DNA from: Klebsiella phage vB_KpM_FBKp34
Sequence record: MW394390.1
Direction: 5' to 3' (one strand)
DNA: 64,000 bases
Position numbers and translations under genes: made by a program. Positions 6,696-25,811 of the stretch are shown piece after piece. Position 1 is the stretch's first letter. Each line of letters begins with the position of its first letter. The notes below the pieces were generated by a model. It was not told the origin of the DNA. It did no database searches and saw nothing but the letters and a program-made list of their open reading frames with translations.

Positions 6696-7011
6696 TATTA
6701 AATATCGTGGAAGAAAAGACCTTTTAATGGAAATCTCTAAGACCAGACATAGTGGATTAGGTATTAATCGTTATTTTACCTATCATGTCATGCCGTATGG
6801 TAAAGAACGTAGAGAAGCCATTATGGCTCATCTTCGTGCAATTAGAAATGAGCCACATAACTATATTGTCATTAATAAAAAATATTGTCTTATTCTTAAG
6901 AAAGATCCTGATTTGAAACGTCTACTCAAACTTGGTAAACTTAAAATGGATAAGATTGGTGGAAATAAAAACACATACTCCGTACTGAGGTTAAACAATG
7001 AGAACATTTGA
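6676..7011 (+). CDS. hypothetical basic protein
   Basis: 111-aa ORF. Confidence 0.45.
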   Translation: MESMKTDIKYRGRKDLLMEISKTRHSGLGINRYFTYHVMPYGKERREAIMAHLRAIRNEPHNYIVINKKYCLILKKDPDLKRLLKLGKLKMDKIGGNKNTYSVLRLNNENI

Positions 7012-7525
7012 AGAAGTTTGGTTTACACCTGGTAATCCAAATTCATTAGAGGCAAGAGAACAAGCACAAAAAGGTTGGAACGATTGTCTAGGGGATGGAC
7101 TAAGATCTAAACTTAGAGGAACAGATTGGTATTGCCGTGGTTGGAATGCCCATATTGATGAGAAACTTAGTATCAAAACTCAATGGGATTTTGTGTCCTA
7201 TGGTGGACTGGGGGTAAGTGGTCAATATTTGGGTAAAAACTTTTCTGCCGAAGGTTGTGAAATTTTGGCTGATATTAATTCTAAGTTTAAAACTTCTCAC
7301 CAAGAAAAGCTTCTACTGAAATATGCTCCAGAATTATATGAAACTTTAAAATGGGCTGTTCCTCTTGCACTTGTCGCTATCGAAGATCACAGACTTGAAC
7401 GTATTAAATGCGGAATTACTGATATTAAAGGTACTTATAGTAATGGCGTAACTGTGTTAGGTATCTCCCAAGATGAAGTAGATCAAATTGAATATGCTAA
7501 CAAACTTTTGGCGGTGTTTAAATGA
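6998..7525 (+). CDS. hypothetical protein
   Basis: 175-aa ORF. Confidence 0.5.
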   Translation: MRTFEEVWFTPGNPNSLEAREQAQKGWNDCLGDGLRSKLRGTDWYCRGWNAHIDEKLSIKTQWDFVSYGGLGVSGQYLGKNFSAEGCEILADINSKFKTSHQEKLLLKYAPELYETLKWAVPLALVAIEDHRLERIKCGITDIKGTYSNGVTVLGISQDEVDQIEYANKLLAVFK

Positions 7526-7764
7526 GAATCTTTGTTGATGAAAGAGAGGGTACTCCTATTTCTTACGAAGAAAGACTTTATATTGCGGATGAAATAGCTA
7601 AACTTGAGGAGTACAAGAAGGATGAACAATCAATTCAGAAAAGTGTTGCGTCTTGGATAGATATCTTGGGATATTGGGATCGAGAAACAGAACTTCTATG
7701 TATTGATCATGACATTTATATGATGAAGAGAACATTAGAAACTGGTCGAGTTATAATTAGCTAA
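7522..7764 (+). CDS. hypothetical protein
   Basis: 80-aa ORF. Confidence 0.45.
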   Translation: MRIFVDEREGTPISYEERLYIADEIAKLEEYKKDEQSIQKSVASWIDILGYWDRETELLCIDHDIYMMKRTLETGRVIIS

Positions 7765-11974: not shown

Positions 11975-12144
11975 TTATGTACAAGATTTTAGTCGTCATT
12001 ACTAAGAAAGACGGTTACGCAGTGTCAGATCACTTCGCTATCACCAGCCAGGTTATAGACTTCGATACTAAAGAAGAAGCTGATATAGCGCACTCTTCTA
12101 TAGCATATCAAGAAGGTTATGAAGTGAATAAACTTTACAAATAA
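11962..12144 (+). CDS. hypothetical protein
   Basis: 60-aa ORF. Confidence 0.35.
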   Translation: MVGIIMYKILVVITKKDGYAVSDHFAITSQVIDFDTKEEADIAHSSIAYQEGYEVNKLYK

Positions 12145-12159
12145 CAAAAGGATTATAAC

Positions 12160-12567
12160 ATGAAATATCAACATATTAAAATTGACATGGATTATTGCGC
12201 TGATCCACTTTGGGTTAGTGTAGATGGGATACACTTTGTAAATGATAGTCTATCTGAATATGAAGACAGACTTTCAAAAGAGTTACTGCACGGTTTATCA
12301 CTCTATCGAGATATTTGGGAGTTGTCTAAGTGGTCAAAGTTTAAATCACCTTCAGATGAGTTTAAAGATGTTGGTTATGAGGATTCACTGGAAGATTTGA
12401 TTAAAGAAATGGAAATCCATTTGGCAGTTAGACTTAAAACTGAAATGCCTGATTACCATATCTATTATTGTAAGTATTACCCTGAAAGAGAGTGTGGTCA
12501 TCAATATGAGAATGTTGAGATCACTTTTGAGAAACCGACTGGCATCTATAGAACTTTAGTAAACTAA
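12160..12567 (+). CDS. hypothetical protein
   Basis: 135-aa ORF, last gene of + block. Confidence 0.5.
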   Translation: MKYQHIKIDMDYCADPLWVSVDGIHFVNDSLSEYEDRLSKELLHGLSLYRDIWELSKWSKFKSPSDEFKDVGYEDSLEDLIKEMEIHLAVRLKTEMPDYHIYYCKYYPERECGHQYENVEITFEKPTGIYRTLVN

Positions 12568-12577
12568 TTAATAAGTA

Positions 12578-12603
12578 GGTTGATCTTTATGGTCAACCTT
12601 GTT
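12578..12603 (+). terminator. hairpin GGTTGA-N9-TCAACC + T-rich tail
   Basis: 6-bp stem directly after stop of 12160..12567. Confidence 0.45.
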
Positions 12604-12811
12604 ATAGTCATATTAAGCAATAGGTGCTGATGCTGCACGAAACAACCACCAGTCTTGCCCGTGATACGGGTGAACTAAAGTTCATCACATTTGTGACAAA
12701 CCTGTTCGTTATTTATATTATTAGATTTATTTAATCAGCGTAGCGTATATCTTATTTTACTAATGATTAATAGTCAAATTAACCACTAATTAATAGTCAA
12801 TTTCACTAACC

Positions 12812-13083
12812 CCTATTTTCCACGCGATTTCACACCCCTCCCCCAAATTTCAGAATTAAAAATGGGGGCGTACCATTTAAAATATCCTCCCAGAAAATAT
12901 CCTTATCCTTATGATTTTATTAATAAAAGACACAACCCTCCCAGAAATCTTATCTTTCCTAGCTCTATATCCGAGGTGCTTAGTGGCCCAAGTTGTGCCA
13001 GATTTTGGATCATAATAATTTCAAAATATCAAGTAAAATAAAAAATATATTTCCTCGCAGTTTCTTGACATTTTCCACGAGTT
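12812..13083. repeat. iteron-like direct repeats (ATTTTCCACGxGxTTC at 12812-12832 and 13063-13083; CCCTCCCAGAAA at 12885-12897 and 12938-12950)
   Basis: seen directly; non-coding. Confidence 0.5.
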
Positions 13084-13488
13084 CTGCTCTAAAACAATTA
13101 CTGAATGATAATGCTTCTCATTCAAGGTTTATAACAGGTCAACCGCCTGTTTGATAACTGTTACACGTAGGATCCTCGCGCTTTCTGTCGGCTCTGCGAC
13201 ATCGCGCAATCAATAACAAATACGAATTATTATCAGATTTAGAATGATTCTCATTCATGATCAAGTGAGAATAAATCTCATTTGCGTTTACGCATAAGAA
13301 AAATTTTTTGAAAAGGTGCTTTGTCAAGTGAAAAGAGAAAATCTTGTTTAGTATTTTAATGGATTTGCACACATAAATTTTATTAAAAGTAAAGATATTT
13401 ATAACATTATCCATTATATTCTTGACAAATCATTATCGAACATATTTTATTACGTAGCAATTGATTGCAAGTCCAATCATTCAGAAAA

Positions 13489-13666
13489 CGAACATATATA
13501 GAGTAAAGGGAGACTTAAAGCTTTCAGTTGAAAGCTTTTAGGATCACTCTCTATATTGTTCGATAATTTATAAGGTGAGATATTCTCTCATAATGTTCTC
13601 AAGCGAACAATATAGAGAGGAACTCACGACCAAAGGGAGAGTGTTACTTTACTCTATATATGTTCG
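13489..13666. promoter_or_regulatory. nested inverted repeats: 20-bp arms 13489-13508/13647-13666 and 16-bp arms 13547-13562/13604-13619 (shared CGAACAaTATAGAG core); internal AAAGCTTTC-N5-GAAAGCTTT hairpin and TGAGA-N5-TCTCA palindrome at 13576-13590
   Basis: perfect complementarity verified by eye. Confidence 0.7.
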
Positions 13667-14289
13667 CTCCTCGTTAAAACTTCGTCGCGAACATTTTTAT
13701 TTGAAAAGAGAAATTAAAGTTTTTATTCTATTATTTAAAGCAAATATATTTAAATCTTTAAATGAATATAAAAGCATTCTCTCTATAGAATATGCAATAG
13801 ATCTTGATTTAATATTTAATGTTTTAATAATGTGATCTGTTTTCAATAGTGCCATAAATACCTCCTATTAGTTTTAATTGTTTATAATAACATAATTTAA
13901 ATAAATATTGCAATCGGGAACCGTTATTTATTGCTTCGCAATTTATAAGTAATGAATGATTAGTTTTCTAATTGGTTTATAGTTTATTATATAGAATTGA
14001 ATAGAGTTAGACAGATTAGAGTTAATGAGAATTGATCTTACTTATGCAATAAAGTGAATAATTATACATACTTAGATGAGAATAGTTATTATTTAACTTA
14101 TTTCAATCAAAAGTTGTAAAATAAGCTCTGTTTTATATAGTCATATAGGCTTTAAAGCTCCTGTAATCCATTCTAAGAGGTGCAAGTCTTACCCCTGGCA
14201 CTTGGTCAACCTTGCTTAGAAAACCTCATAACGCGATTTATTCATTTTTCTGCTGTGAATGATTTCAATAGATAAAAGCTATCAAGGAT

Positions 14290-14322
14290 CAGGAGACAAA
14301 AGAAAGGGCGCTTTGTGCGCCC
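14290..14322 (-). terminator. rho-independent terminator (GGGCGC-ACAAA-GCGCCC then T-rich on minus strand)
   Basis: downstream of 14339..14707. Confidence 0.6.
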
Positions 14323-14338
14323 TATTTGAAATGGTGTT

Positions 14339-14707
14339 TTATTTGTATGCTGGATCGTTTGTAATGTCGATCCAATGAGATAAATCAATAATTCCTTTTT
14401 CTTTCATCTTCTCTAACAAGCGTTCTGCGCGGGTAGTGTTATTGATATAATAATCAAAGGTTTCTCCGGTTTCTTCGTCCTCTAACGTTTCGATTCGACC
14501 GATGATCACGCGATCCATGGCGTAAACTTTGCCAGTGTACCAGTTTGTAAGATGAATTTCACACTTATAATCATCTGACCCGCTGTCAATGGTTACAACG
14601 TCGATTAAATCACCTTTGAAAACAGAAAGTGACCACATCGGATCATGATCTACTACGCCGCCAAAATCTTTACCTTTGATAGTAGTATTCAGATTGATGA
14701 TAGCCAT
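14339..14707 (-). CDS. hypothetical protein
   Basis: 122-aa ORF, protein-like composition. Confidence 0.5.
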   Translation of the reverse strand: MAIINLNTTIKGKDFGGVVDHDPMWSLSVFKGDLIDVVTIDSGSDDYKCEIHLTNWYTGKVYAMDRVIIGRIETLEDEETGETFDYYINNTTRAERLLEKMKEKGIIDLSHWIDITNDPAYK

Positions 14708-14775
14708 TTTCGTTTATCCTATGTAAGTTTATTGTCGGGGCGCTTATCACGCCCTGGATTGTTAGTCTATTTTAA

Positions 14776-15144
14776 TTAGAATGTTGCACGTTTAATTTTT
14801 AATACTTCTACTGTATAACCTAAACTTAAATACAGTTCTTTAACTTCTTTATAACGTCCAGGAAAATTACCGCATTTCATTGCAAAATCTGCGTTATTAG
14901 TCAATCGCCATTCTTTTGATCCTGGTGCTGTGCGGATATCTGATACAAACAAACGTTTGTTGTTTTTAGTCACAATCACCAGATCTTCGCCTGTTGGTTC
15001 CTCTTCGATCTCTACTACAGAATAGAAATTAACACGGGCACTATTAAGAATACGGCAAGCCTCTTTTGCTTGCTCTTTTGTTGTAAAACGTGAATCTAAA
15101 ATTGTTTCTTTAAAAGTTAAAGTAGTGCATTTAATAGCAAACAT
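14776..15144 (-). CDS. hypothetical protein
   Basis: 122-aa ORF. Confidence 0.5.
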   Translation of the reverse strand: MFAIKCTTLTFKETILDSRFTTKEQAKEACRILNSARVNFYSVVEIEEEPTGEDLVIVTKNNKRLFVSDIRTAPGSKEWRLTNNADFAMKCGNFPGRYKEVKELYLSLGYTVEVLKIKRATF

Positions 15145-15508
15145 GTTAGTTACCTCGTTAAGTTAATTTCGTATTCCTGCCCTACGAGATAAATAATAGC
15201 ATAACTGATATTTCATGCAAGAGTAGATTTGTAAAGAACTGTAAAGAAAACAATCATATGTGAATAGCACACTATAAAATCTTTGTCAAATTTATTTTCA
15301 AGTCCTGTATAAACATACATACCTTTAAAACGCTCTAGAATCGATTTTAAGCGCTTTTGTGTCCGGGCAATACCCTAGCTCATAAACAAATAGATCTCAC
15401 TAATAAGAATTTTTCTCATTTAGAAATTAAAGTTGGCACGATGTTTGTTGCGAGTAATTCTCATTTGAAGGGAGGCGTCCAGGTTCGGTTAGCTTCGCTG
15501 AATGGCAG

Positions 15509-24939: not shown

Positions 24940-25161
24940 ATTTGACAGCCTGGCAAAAGCTGGGCTATACTTCCCCTATACAGAAAAGTGACAGCCACCC
25001 CACGGCGTAAAGGCGGGGCTAACGTACCAGGTGCGGGGCCAGGTCGGAAGGTGAATCGCCGGTAGCTCGCCTTAAGTAGTTTTGTAAAGAAGTGTAAAGA
25101 TGCTTGATCCTGGTGTTGGTTGTGTTATTATTTCTACATGGCGAGGGGTAACGGGAATCGC

Positions 25162-25181
25162 GAGACAAACACCGAACCTGC
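25162..25181. repeat. 20-bp element GAGACAAACACCGAACCTGC, inverted partner of 15509-15528
   Basis: exact match. Confidence 0.7.
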
Positions 25182-25203
25182 GCGTCATTCTGCAAATGAG
25201 AAT

Positions 25204-25275
25204 GAGTCTCATTTTGGTTTGTAGATGAGAATAATTATCATTCAACATATCAAACGAGAACCATTCTCATTTGAG
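25204..25275. promoter_or_regulatory. three tandem TGAGA-N5-TCTCA-type palindromes (operator-like array)
   Basis: AAATGAGAATGAGTCTCATTT, GATGAGAATAATTATCATTC, GAGAACCATTCTC; same motif at 13268-13282 and 13576-13590. Confidence 0.5.
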
Positions 25276-25327
25276 GATCTTCCCAAGAAACTGCCTGGAT
25301 AAAAACATGGGTATGACGTGAACCAGA

Positions 25328-25560
25328 AAATTATGGATTTTGAAAATAGGGATGTCCAAAATGCTACAAATTTTTCCCGATTTGCCACAAAAATTTTCAT
25401 AAAATTTAAAATAGTTTGAATATTAAATCTTTTGAATAAAAATCTGTATCTTGCTATACTACATTGCGTTGTAAATATCACTTTTAAAAACATGGAATTG
25501 ACTTTTCACTAAAAAATTATGGATTTTAAAATTAGAAGTGTCAAAAATGCTAGATCGAAC
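25328..25560. repeat. two copies of about 40-bp direct repeat AAAATTATGGATTTTgAAAATAGgGATGTCcAAAATGCTA (25328-25370, 25516-25558)
   Basis: 37/40 identity; each begins a tiny ORF MDF... Confidence 0.6.
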
Positions 25561-25704
25561 ATGGTTTTAACATAAAACTTTATTTAAATTGTGTGTGCAT
25601 CTGTTATAAAGAAAGCTCAACTATAATTTCTTAAAGATGTTAAGTCAAGCCTTCTCTTGTGCAGATTTTTAAGTCAAAATATAAAAGGTCTGATCAATAA
25701 AATA

Positions 25705-25800
25705 TCACAGTTCTGAGTTGCTTTCAAAAACAGCCTTCGCCCACCCACGTGGAGTTAGAGAACGTAATATTTTAGTTTTCTTACCCTTTCCACCAGTTAA
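25705..25800 (-). pseudogene. duplicated 3' end of the C5-MTase-like gene (orphan C-terminal fragment)
   Basis: translates LTGGKGKKTKILRSLTPRGWAKAVFESNSEL versus intact gene C-term KLGGKSEKTKIIRSLTPRGFSRAVYESNKG. Confidence 0.65.
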
Positions 25801-25811
25801 CAATAAATAGA

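Follow-up and report, generated by a model that had tools for sequence, protein, structure and literature searches.

A gene-poor gap between convergent gene blocks

We describe a gene-poor gap in the genome of Klebsiella phage vB_KpM_FBKp34 (MW394390.1) and the nested inverted-repeat element that it contains. All coordinates are those of the window, the whole stretch of 64,000 nt that was analysed, on the + strand as given. The gap (12568-14338) extends from the stop codon of a + strand gene (12160-12567) to that of a - strand gene (14339-14707), whose product belongs to the Phage_30_8 family of Pfam (PF06019, E = 3e-30). The genes that flank the gap match only families of unknown function. 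Left of the gap all the long open reading frames (ORFs) are on the + strand, and rightward, to about 37 kb, they are all on the - strand. The flanking genes are thus convergent, and the term "leader", used in a first-pass annotation made from the sequence alone, is a misnomer. The cumulative GC skew turns at the gap, where it follows the switch in transcription direction; the authors of the rV5 genome paper likewise linked the turn of the skew with such a switch (PMC3606486).

The source of the window is an rV5/phi92-like Klebsiella myovirus. The closest record is that of Klebsiella phage KP13-16, an unclassified member of the Stephanstirmvirinae (84% of the query covered, 93.8% identity, seven indels in the region compared); the other Klebsiella relatives match only the final ~190 nt of the gap query. 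Conservation of the gap, a check that the first-pass annotation had suggested, extends to both subfamilies: every fetched relative whose locus spans it has a gene-free gap of 1.5-2.6 kb beside a converging - strand block, be it a member of the Stephanstirmvirinae (Paula, KP13-26, KKP_3264, ukendt and ZCKP1) or of the Vequintavirinae (rV5, PVP-SE1, KB57, Mydo and pEp_SNUABM_01). In the Stephanstirmvirinae the converging block ends with a Phage_30_8 / Phi92_gp248 homologue. The position of the gap is therefore conserved in the family, as is the lack of genes, and the window copy holds a single small ORF, which is decayed. The gap itself and the terminal repeats of relatives are already known: the rV5 genome paper draws the stretch 104013-106618 as a "non-coding" box, with genes 163/164 convergent, and gives no function for it (Kropinski et al. 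2013; PMC3606486). Complete E. coli genomes contain no homologue of the region, searches for tRNA and tmRNA genes were negative, and a comparison with Rfam returned no match at E <= 1 in the gap region and in four relatives, and none at the gathering score in the whole window.

The features that we distinguish in the gap are the following.

12568-12981, no strand: non-coding left flank of the predicted repeat (right-end unique side of the putative concatemer junction), with C-rich pac-like motifs; from repeat search and relatives
12982-13348, no strand: predicted direct terminal repeat, ~367 bp, boundaries +/- ~20 nt; from homology to the repeats of relatives
13065-13095, + strand: promoter-like motif TTGACA-N14-TGCTCTAAAAC within the predicted repeat; conserved in relatives
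13106-13280, no strand: operator-like palindromes related to TGAGAATnATTCTCA, at 13106, 13221, 13239 and 13266; from motif scan
13489-13666, + strand: nested inverted-repeat element, a four-helix junction of 178 nt; from perfect repeats and folding
13697-13855, - strand: ORF of 52 amino acids, with a promoter-like site (13913-13884) and an AGGAGG ribosome-binding site
13700-14150, no strand: AT-rich spacer, GC 0.18-0.25 versus ~0.35 elsewhere
14150-14304, no strand: sequence-conserved non-coding block with the second copy of ACGCGATTT (14231-14239); common to other Stephanstirmvirinae
14305-14323, no strand: GC-rich terminator hairpin GGGCGCTTTGTGCGCCC of the converging - strand operon; from terminator scan

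The nested inverted repeats

The element is closed by a perfect helix of 20 bp, P1, in which arm A (13489-13508) pairs with arm D (13647-13666). Inside it, arm B (13547-13562) and arm C (13604-13619) form a second perfect helix of 16 bp, P3, which carries an apical hairpin (13575-13591) with the palindrome TGAGA-N5-TCTCA (13576-13590); a hairpin P2 (13517-13538) and a weak P4 (~13622-13642) complete the junction. The first-pass annotation had described the two nested perfect repeats around this palindrome, and it was exact on this point. These repeats far exceed what the composition of the region produces: in 300 dinucleotide shuffles, no perfect inverted repeat was longer than 15 bp. The minimum free energy of the element folded as RNA is -76.1 kcal/mol on the + strand versus -68.8 kcal/mol on the - strand (z = -11).

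The element is nearly identical in the window and in KP13-16, where three or four positions differ, while parts of the flanks are visibly more diverged. The loop of P2 (13526-13529 in the window, ~6933-6936 of the KP13-16 locus) is CAGTTG in the former but the reverse complement, CAACTG, in the latter, which implies that the hairpin was flipped by template switching, at the level of DNA.

We define the element by a perfect closing inverted repeat of 14-21 bp, two or three hairpins inside it, and a distance of 140-310 nt from the terminal repeat, on its right side; the window and its relatives show this pattern. Across relatives the element is strand-specific and measures 127-259 nt. In every relative examined among the Stephanstirmvirinae, a perfect inverted repeat of 15-16 bp, GCTAATAATA[AC][CGA][GCA]CA, surrounds 98-117 nt; its arms vary from phage to phage, yet perfect complementarity is kept. 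The unit folds into a three-way junction whose stability is -58 to -69 kcal/mol on the window's + strand versus -44 to -56 kcal/mol on the other. In the Vequintavirinae the element is a four-helix junction of 185-259 nt, whose perfect closing repeat of 18-21 bp depends on the clade (GACATAATATAAAAGCAG in rV5, GACACTATAACACGAGAG in PVP-SE1, AGCGACACAATAACACGGGAG in KB57 and Mydo, GCCACCTATAAAAGCAAGTAG in the Erwinia phage), and its inner stem GTGTTATCGTGGC/GCCACGATAACGC is nearly invariant. The fold of the + strand is the more stable one in all 18 of the 18 GCTAATAAT-type loci, by ~9-23 kcal/mol, and by the same ~9-23 kcal/mol at every full-element repeat pair in five Vequintavirinae loci. The records of phages that match the region around the element number 133 and 63, and what still aligns across genera is limited to the 3' portion of the element and at most ~60 nt beyond it.

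The substitutions between relatives preserve the helices. In an alignment of 16 sequences (A2), 99.9% of the cells are paired and 11 of the 45 pairs show compensatory double changes; none of 500 shuffles reached the observed values, and partners slid out of register were paired in only 24-57% of the cells. The wobble pairs are of one kind on the window's + strand: 69 G·U cells, at 10 pair positions, versus 0 A·C. In arall, one further compensatory change is seen in P1. In the alignment of eight Vequintavirinae (A4), double changes occur in 23 of the 64 pairs, with 15 G·U cells versus 2 A·C. Compensatory changes, together with wobble pairs that fall almost exclusively on the + strand, argue for a folded single strand, RNA or DNA, and not for iterons or duplex binding sites; we consider this mode of action likely for the element. 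We found no description of the covarying folded element in the papers searched, and no match to it in Rfam 15.

The window element belongs with those of the Vequintavirinae by its organisation. The helix order is the same (P1, the P2 hairpin, a long P3 with its apical hairpin, a weak P4), it stands to the right of the predicted repeat, and its right flank GCGAACATTTTTATTTGAAAAG corresponds to GCGAACGATTTTTATTTGACAAG in the Vequintavirinae; a T-rich run follows the element in the window and in the Vequintavirinae (GCGAAC(G)ATTTTTATTTG). An alignment of the window element to those of the Vequintavirinae was not obtained with MAFFT, and the case for homology is therefore built on position, on the order of the helices and on the right flank that they have in common. 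Further elements of the window type were not found by pattern scans of viral contigs and metagenome contigs; a scan for the flank motif gave mostly chance matches and three more Vequintavirinae copies, and the metagenome loci anchored on proteins are all of the GCTAATAAT type.

The phages whose Phage_30_8 protein is most similar to that of the window (loci L061 and L062; 88-89% amino-acid identity) have an element of the GCTAATAATAACGCA type, and their DNA similarity to the window begins only at 14215. The annotated Stephanstirmvirinae loci have - strand genes left of the gap, where the window and KP13-16 have a + strand block, in a convergent layout like that of the Vequintavirinae. Since the closest Phage_30_8 relatives carry the GCTAATAAT type, the window left of ~14150 looks like a mosaic replacement (an exchange) that has a Vequintavirinae-like architecture.

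The predicted genome ends

Published read-based data on three relatives place their genome ends. BME3 has a direct terminal repeat of 342 bp determined from reads, FKP3 is published as linear with a terminal repeat of 317 bp, and KPP-1 shows a twofold coverage over 116316-116829, a repeat of 514 bp, and is assigned to the T7 type by PhageTerm. It has also been stated that the Stephanstirmvirinae "terminate with direct terminal repeats". All three repeats map within the gap. That of BME3 is the first and the last 342 nt of the record and starts after GAGGTGCTT, which precedes the same sequence in Paula; that of FKP3 is the first and the last 317 nt of the record; that of KPP-1 begins directly behind GCGGTGCTA, and its end is GAATTGTGTT|TAGCAAT. 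GGTGCT(T/A) thus precedes the left boundary in both BME3 and KPP-1, and the window has the same context at 12973-12981.

The counterparts of the left boundary of BME3 and of both boundaries of KPP-1 are recognisable in the window, in the same order and at the same place. The left boundary of the predicted repeat, at 12981/12982, follows GAGGTGCTT (12973-12981) in the context ..CCGAGGTGCTT|AGTGGCCC..TCAAAATATCAAG; written as ..GAGGTGCTT|AGTGG..CAAAATATCAAG, this context matches both KPP-1/KB57 and BME3/Paula. The right boundary, at 13348/13349, follows AATCTTGTT in the context ..AAAATCTTGTT|TAGTATTT, and ..AAAATCTTGTT|TAGTAT matches KPP-1. The sequence TG(C/T)TTAGT is present at both predicted boundaries. 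Between the repeat and the element there are 140 nt in the window, where the repeat is a predicted one, 282 nt in BME3 and 308 nt in KPP-1. We are fairly confident that the genome ends lie in the gap. The first-pass annotation had proposed either a replication origin or a packaging/recombination site; packaging is the alternative that the homology of the three repeats favours, while the specific grammar of an origin is not supported, for lack of iterons and of a DnaA box.

Several short repeats lie to the left of the predicted repeat, in a stretch where C exceeds G (skew -0.48 to -0.54): a tandem pair of 23 nt (12756-12801), ACGCGATTT (12822-12830), and CCCCTCCCCC...GGGGG (12835-12868), in which C5 (12840-12844) pairs with G5 (12864-12868), an inverted repeat already seen in the first-pass annotation. 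The latter also listed two pairs of direct repeats. One of them, at 12885 and 12938, corresponds to a shared 11-mer, CCTCCCAGAAA, which starts at 12886 and 12937; KP13-16 retains the two copies, and KB57 has an analogous pair, TGCCGAAAATATC twice, at the matching place. The C-rich motifs and the CCTCCCAGAAA pair are found 35-170 nt left of the predicted boundary. KB57 has counterparts at the same relative place (GTTTTCTCCAC..CACCCCCGCCCCC..GGGG..TGCCGAAAATATC twice), and so do Paula/BME3 (TTGCCGCAAAATAC and CGCCCCCC..CCCCCTCAAATATC). These C-rich repeats may be the terminase-recognition (pac-like) side of the junction. The other pair, given as 12812 and 13063, is a 10-mer, ATTTTCCACG, which exists at 12815 and 13070; we judge it to be at chance level, as two-copy matches of this length are a class that the repeat search flags as often due to chance. 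A role of ATTTTCCACG as a DnaA box was rejected: the region has no TTWTNCACA, and the second copy is not kept in KP13-16 and is the spacer of the promoter-like motif 13065-13095.

ACGCGATTT occurs exactly twice in the 64 kb (12822-12830 and 14231-14239), versus 0.12 expected, and the two copies bracket the region of the repeat and the element, one on each side. It is also present at the boundary of the BME3 repeat, and the near-identical CCGCGATCT and AACGCGATT are found in the conserved 3' block of most of 15 aligned Stephanstirmvirinae. In BME3, the right boundary of the terminal repeat is followed by four direct copies of CAACAAATA(G/A) (343-410); Paula has one copy.

Proposed organisation and alternatives

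We propose that the gap is probably the genome-end (concatemer-junction) region of a phage with a short direct terminal repeat, and that the nested repeats are a strand-specific folded element. The phage would package unit-length DNA with this terminal repeat, and the order on the + strand would be the C-rich pac-like side, the terminal repeat, the element, the decayed gene, the AT-rich spacer, the conserved block and the terminator. The terminase would nick at TG(C/T)TTAGT on both sides of the repeat, which would leave the element 140 bp inside the left end. As for the nested repeats, they would form the stems of a four-helix junction, and its active form would be the single + strand, folded on itself. 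We lean slightly towards an RNA transcript for this strand; the unwound + strand of DNA is the less likely substrate and, in our opinion, a rather unlikely one. The element would act in cis near the left end, either in end processing/packaging or in the priming of replication, a role that we put forward as a guess, and a tentative one.

Several observations weigh against this proposal. Regarding the ends, the coordinates of the repeat in vB_KpM_FBKp34 are predicted purely by homology. The left boundary of the FKP3 repeat does not follow GGTGCT; its context differs, and by alignment it is ~14 nt inward of that of BME3. The record of KP13-16 was deposited as circular, and rV5, PVP-SE1 and phiTE were reported as circularly permuted on the basis of restriction digests, which are older data (PMC3606486 for rV5). 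The BME3 and FKP3 records also have odd internal duplications of the repeat. In BME3 (PP239276) the first 788 nt recur near the end of the record, and the annotated "DTR-L" contains Ns; in FKP3 (PP895363) a third copy of the 317-bp repeat is at 501-817. These additional copies of terminal regions are probably editing artefacts.

Regarding the folded strand, the covariation is seen in relatives, and the lineage of the window consists of two near-identical sequences, the window and KP13-16. The strand asymmetry of the window's own element is small (-76.1 versus -68.8 kcal/mol). A covariance model (R1), built from the E. coli/Klebsiella GCTAATAAT type, does not recognise this element: it gives the window 11.5 bits (E = 0.05), compared with 131.5 bits for arall. 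Neither a canonical sigma-70 promoter nor a terminator consistently brackets the element. Last, P1 is a perfect Watson-Crick helix in every sequence, except for one G·U and two odd cells in the outermost pairs of A4, and one motif recurs in the arms of P1 and P3, both in the window and, as judged by eye, in the Vequintavirinae (GCGACACAATAACAC versus GCCACGATAACGC), which means that all four copies have changed in concert. A pure RNA model predicts neither the perfection of P1 nor the shared motif, and both would fit a role as duplex DNA or in protein binding. Together with the flip of the P2 loop, they would suit a duplex or cruciform role, or the recognition of a long perfect helix by an enzyme of the RNase III type.

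The alternative that survives best, which we nevertheless regard as unlikely, is that the element is an independent gene for a non-coding RNA, has nothing to do with the genome ends and only happens to lie in the gap; an example would be an early structured RNA that titrates or mimics a host factor (an anti-defence decoy or a regulator). Functional RNAs typically show covariation and conserved G·U pairs, the element is in a region that could enter the cell early, and it is followed by the T-rich run in the window and the Vequintavirinae; moreover, the rV5-like phage phiTE expresses an anti-ToxN RNA from another intergenic site. However, no such run follows the element in phages of the E. coli type, no Rfam family matches, no promoter is consistently found, and a perfect P1 is not needed for an RNA. 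The fixed distance between the element and the terminal repeat in two subfamilies suggests a role in cis instead. We have rejected the pseudo-ToxI RNA of phiTE as a precedent for transcription of the gap, since its locus is elsewhere, near tRNAs and the terminase gene.

It is improbable, in our view, that the gap holds an iteron-type replication origin, in which a phage initiator would recognise the duplex form of the four CGAACA(T)ATATAGAG units and melt the adjoining AT-rich tract. This is close to what the first-pass annotation had in mind, and some observations do go in its direction: the four copies of the motif adjoin 450 bp of DNA with 18-25% GC, from clade to clade the copies of the arm motif change together, which is how iterons that co-evolve with their initiator would behave, some Klebsiella relatives have one to three additional direct copies upstream, and the cumulative GC skew turns at the gap. 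However, the copies are not iteron-like, for they alternate in orientation (+,-,+,-) and pair perfectly as stems, and no regular array of at least three direct repeats is present. The inner helices of relatives covary, with G·U on one strand only, which is unexpected for duplex binding sites. The additional direct copies are absent from the Vequintavirinae and nearly absent from the E. coli phages, so that iterons are not a conserved feature; in the window, those at 13437 and 13688 are within the range of shuffles. No DnaA box (TTWTNCACA) is present within 12000-15000, and the turn of the skew coincides with the switch in transcription direction. Whether a replication origin resides in the AT-rich part is neither supported nor excluded by this analysis.

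We give the same low standing to the idea that the palindromes are a duplex-DNA or cruciform signal, recognised by a phage protein such as the small terminase subunit or a resolvase; the structure of the inner arms would then be a by-product. The points that speak for it are those just listed against our proposal, namely a perfect P1 of 14-21 bp in which G·U is nearly absent whatever the clade, the motif shared by P1 and P3 and the reverse-complemented P2 loop, to which one may add the proximity of the terminal repeat. Against it, the inner helices covary although they contain no repeated motif, and the 69 G·U versus 0 A·C cells of A2 mean that the hairpins of the - strand are much weaker; a cruciform needs hairpins on both strands.

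That the element is non-functional debris, a recombination scar or a decaying mobile endonuclease cassette with palindromes perfected by template switching, is very improbable: a decayed gene with a weak T5orf172 resemblance adjoins it, seven indels separate the window from KP13-16, and the left part of the gap looks replaced relative to the closest Phage_30_8 relatives, but two subfamilies have retained the element in the same position, with substitutions that compensate each other, and it has hardly changed between the window and KP13-16 while parts of its flanks have.

Other parts of the gap

Within the predicted repeat, the motif TTGACA-N14-TGCTCTAAAAC has equivalents upstream of the element in KB57, 4MG and locus L021 (TTGACA-N15/16-ATGCTCAAAA) and in BME3 (TTGACA-N15-TGTTCACATAG), so that TTGACA-N14-16-TG(C/T)TCA.A precedes the element in all three clades. 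We considered it as a sigma-70 promoter of the element and rejected it: such a promoter is not consistently found, and the conserved TTGACA-N15-TGCTCAAAA is without the key bases of the -10 box.

Sites that resemble TGAGAATnATTCTCA are overrepresented in the window (22 sites with at most three mismatches, versus 7.5 +/- 3.1 expected), and the exact core TGAGA-N5-TCTCA occurs four times, versus 0.16 expected. Related palindromes are found within the repeats of BME3 and FKP3 and in the gap of KB57. Outside the gap, they cluster in the non-coding stretches 15404-15463 and 25197-25269, often extended to AAATGAGA..TCTCATTTG, and three of them are exactly 29 nt apart (25197, 25226 and 25255). The palindrome looks like the operator of a regulator of the phage or of its host. 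The idea of a Fur box was rejected, as the resemblance is only partial: the 19-bp consensus GATAATGATAATCATTATC has no hit with up to three mismatches in the 64 kb, and the 7-1-7 form is matched at only 13 of 15 positions. The stretch 24940-25810 is a second gene-poor region of ~870 nt, GC-rich at 24990-25170 and followed by the array of three palindromes and an AT-rich tract; no Rfam family matches it.

The first-pass annotation found no convincing ORF. The region is indeed otherwise gene-poor, but a 52-amino-acid ORF with an AGGAGG ribosome-binding site is present on the - strand (13697-13855), downstream of a promoter-like site, TTGCAA-18-TGnTATTAT, and both signals are intact. In KP13-16 the corresponding gene (7104-7586 of the locus, - strand) is a full coding sequence of 160 amino acids, from which the window version lacks 264 and 60 nt, both in frame, which shows that the ORF is the remnant of this gene. 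The 160-amino-acid product weakly resembles Pfam T5orf172 (E = 0.011, which does not reach the curated cut-off), and the in-frame losses removed the core of this resemblance.

The AT-rich tract, which the first-pass annotation had placed at 13700-14100, extends over 13700-14150; it contains the repeat families D1 and D5, operator-like sites at 13952, 14026 and 14077, and a TTAGAnAGATTAnAGTTA-like motif that, in a comparison by eye, is common to Paula. The block that follows is 85-89% identical to the Klebsiella relatives from 14151, and 14228-14333 is 75-78% identical in about 100 phage records, from E. coli and other phages. Indels of one nucleotide between clades speak against a coding function of this block. 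The possibility of a small RNA was rejected, as the block has no consensus structure other than the terminator. The terminator hairpin has a weak T-run on the + strand; the same hairpin, AAGGGCGCTTnGTGCGCCC, is reused several times per genome in the family (14305-14323 in the window, 6232 in locus L002, 2291 in L013, and in L015-L018).

Comparison with known systems

In single-strand origins, such as the sso of plasmids and the minus-strand origins of M13 and G4, one strand of a non-coding DNA of ~150-300 nt, active in one orientation, folds into several hairpins. The element is likewise strand-specific and of similar size (127-259 nt). On the other hand, it is found beside a terminal repeat, in large double-stranded DNA phages that have their own primase-helicase (gp230 in rV5, PMC3606486). 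In iteron origins, such as the lambda ori and plasmid oriV, repeated units adjoin an AT-rich tract, as they do here; the units of the element differ in that they alternate and pair, and neither a regular array of direct repeats, nor a DnaA box, nor an overlapping initiator gene accompanies them. The paper on the origin of ICP1 offers no direct parallel.

The "non-coding" box of rV5 is the closest match. It has the same position, at the convergent junction of small early genes, it is of the same size class (2.6 kb), and it contains a homologous element (2440-2624 of the rV5 locus L026) with a perfect closing repeat of 18 bp, whose more stable strand is the same. The rV5 paper differs in what it describes, since it noted only the lack of ORFs, with no termini, repeats or structure, and it reported the genome as circularly permuted (PMC3606486).

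The gap has been left blank in annotations since 2013, in rV5-like and phi92-like phages that are widely isolated and are therapeutic candidates against E. coli, Klebsiella and Salmonella. Placing the ends, the probable terminase signals and the element in it shows annotators where these genomes should be opened, and marks a region that engineers must not disturb. The element is a testable object for the way ends are cut and duplicated and for the site and mode of replication start; about 200 natural sequence variants of it exist and, if it is proven to be an RNA, it would be one that Rfam 15 does not contain.

The predicted junction resembles that of phages of the T7 type in that the terminal repeats of relatives are short (317-514 bp), KPP-1 being of this type according to PhageTerm, and in that short conserved repeats flank a terminal repeat with defined boundary motifs. 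The processing of T7 concatemers involves a hairpin-forming palindrome near the junction. Here, in place of a simple palindrome, we find a conserved multi-helix junction with wobble pairs on one strand, in a myovirus of 140-150 kb whose ends, placed by homology, would be in a gene-free gap of 1.5-2.6 kb.

The packaging RNA (pRNA) of phi29 is an RNA with a multi-helix junction, closed by a long helix of its two ends, and is encoded a few hundred nucleotides from the genome end. The element has a similar overall shape and is 140-310 nt from the terminal repeat. The two systems differ by the packaging machinery, as these phages have a conventional terminase (its large subunit is annotated in phiTE), and the pRNA family (RF00044) has no match at E <= 1 in the gap region or in the four relatives. 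It is a speculative idea, and an unlikely one, that the four-helix junction is a structured nucleic acid, notably an RNA, that a large family of myoviruses using a terminase needs at the genome end, in cis or in trans, as a pRNA-like cofactor in the cutting of ends and in packaging, or as a primer or R-loop RNA for replication that starts beside the terminal repeat. If the element did turn out to be a pRNA-like cofactor or an RNA that starts replication, it would define a class of phage RNA for which nothing comparable has been described except in the phi29 group.

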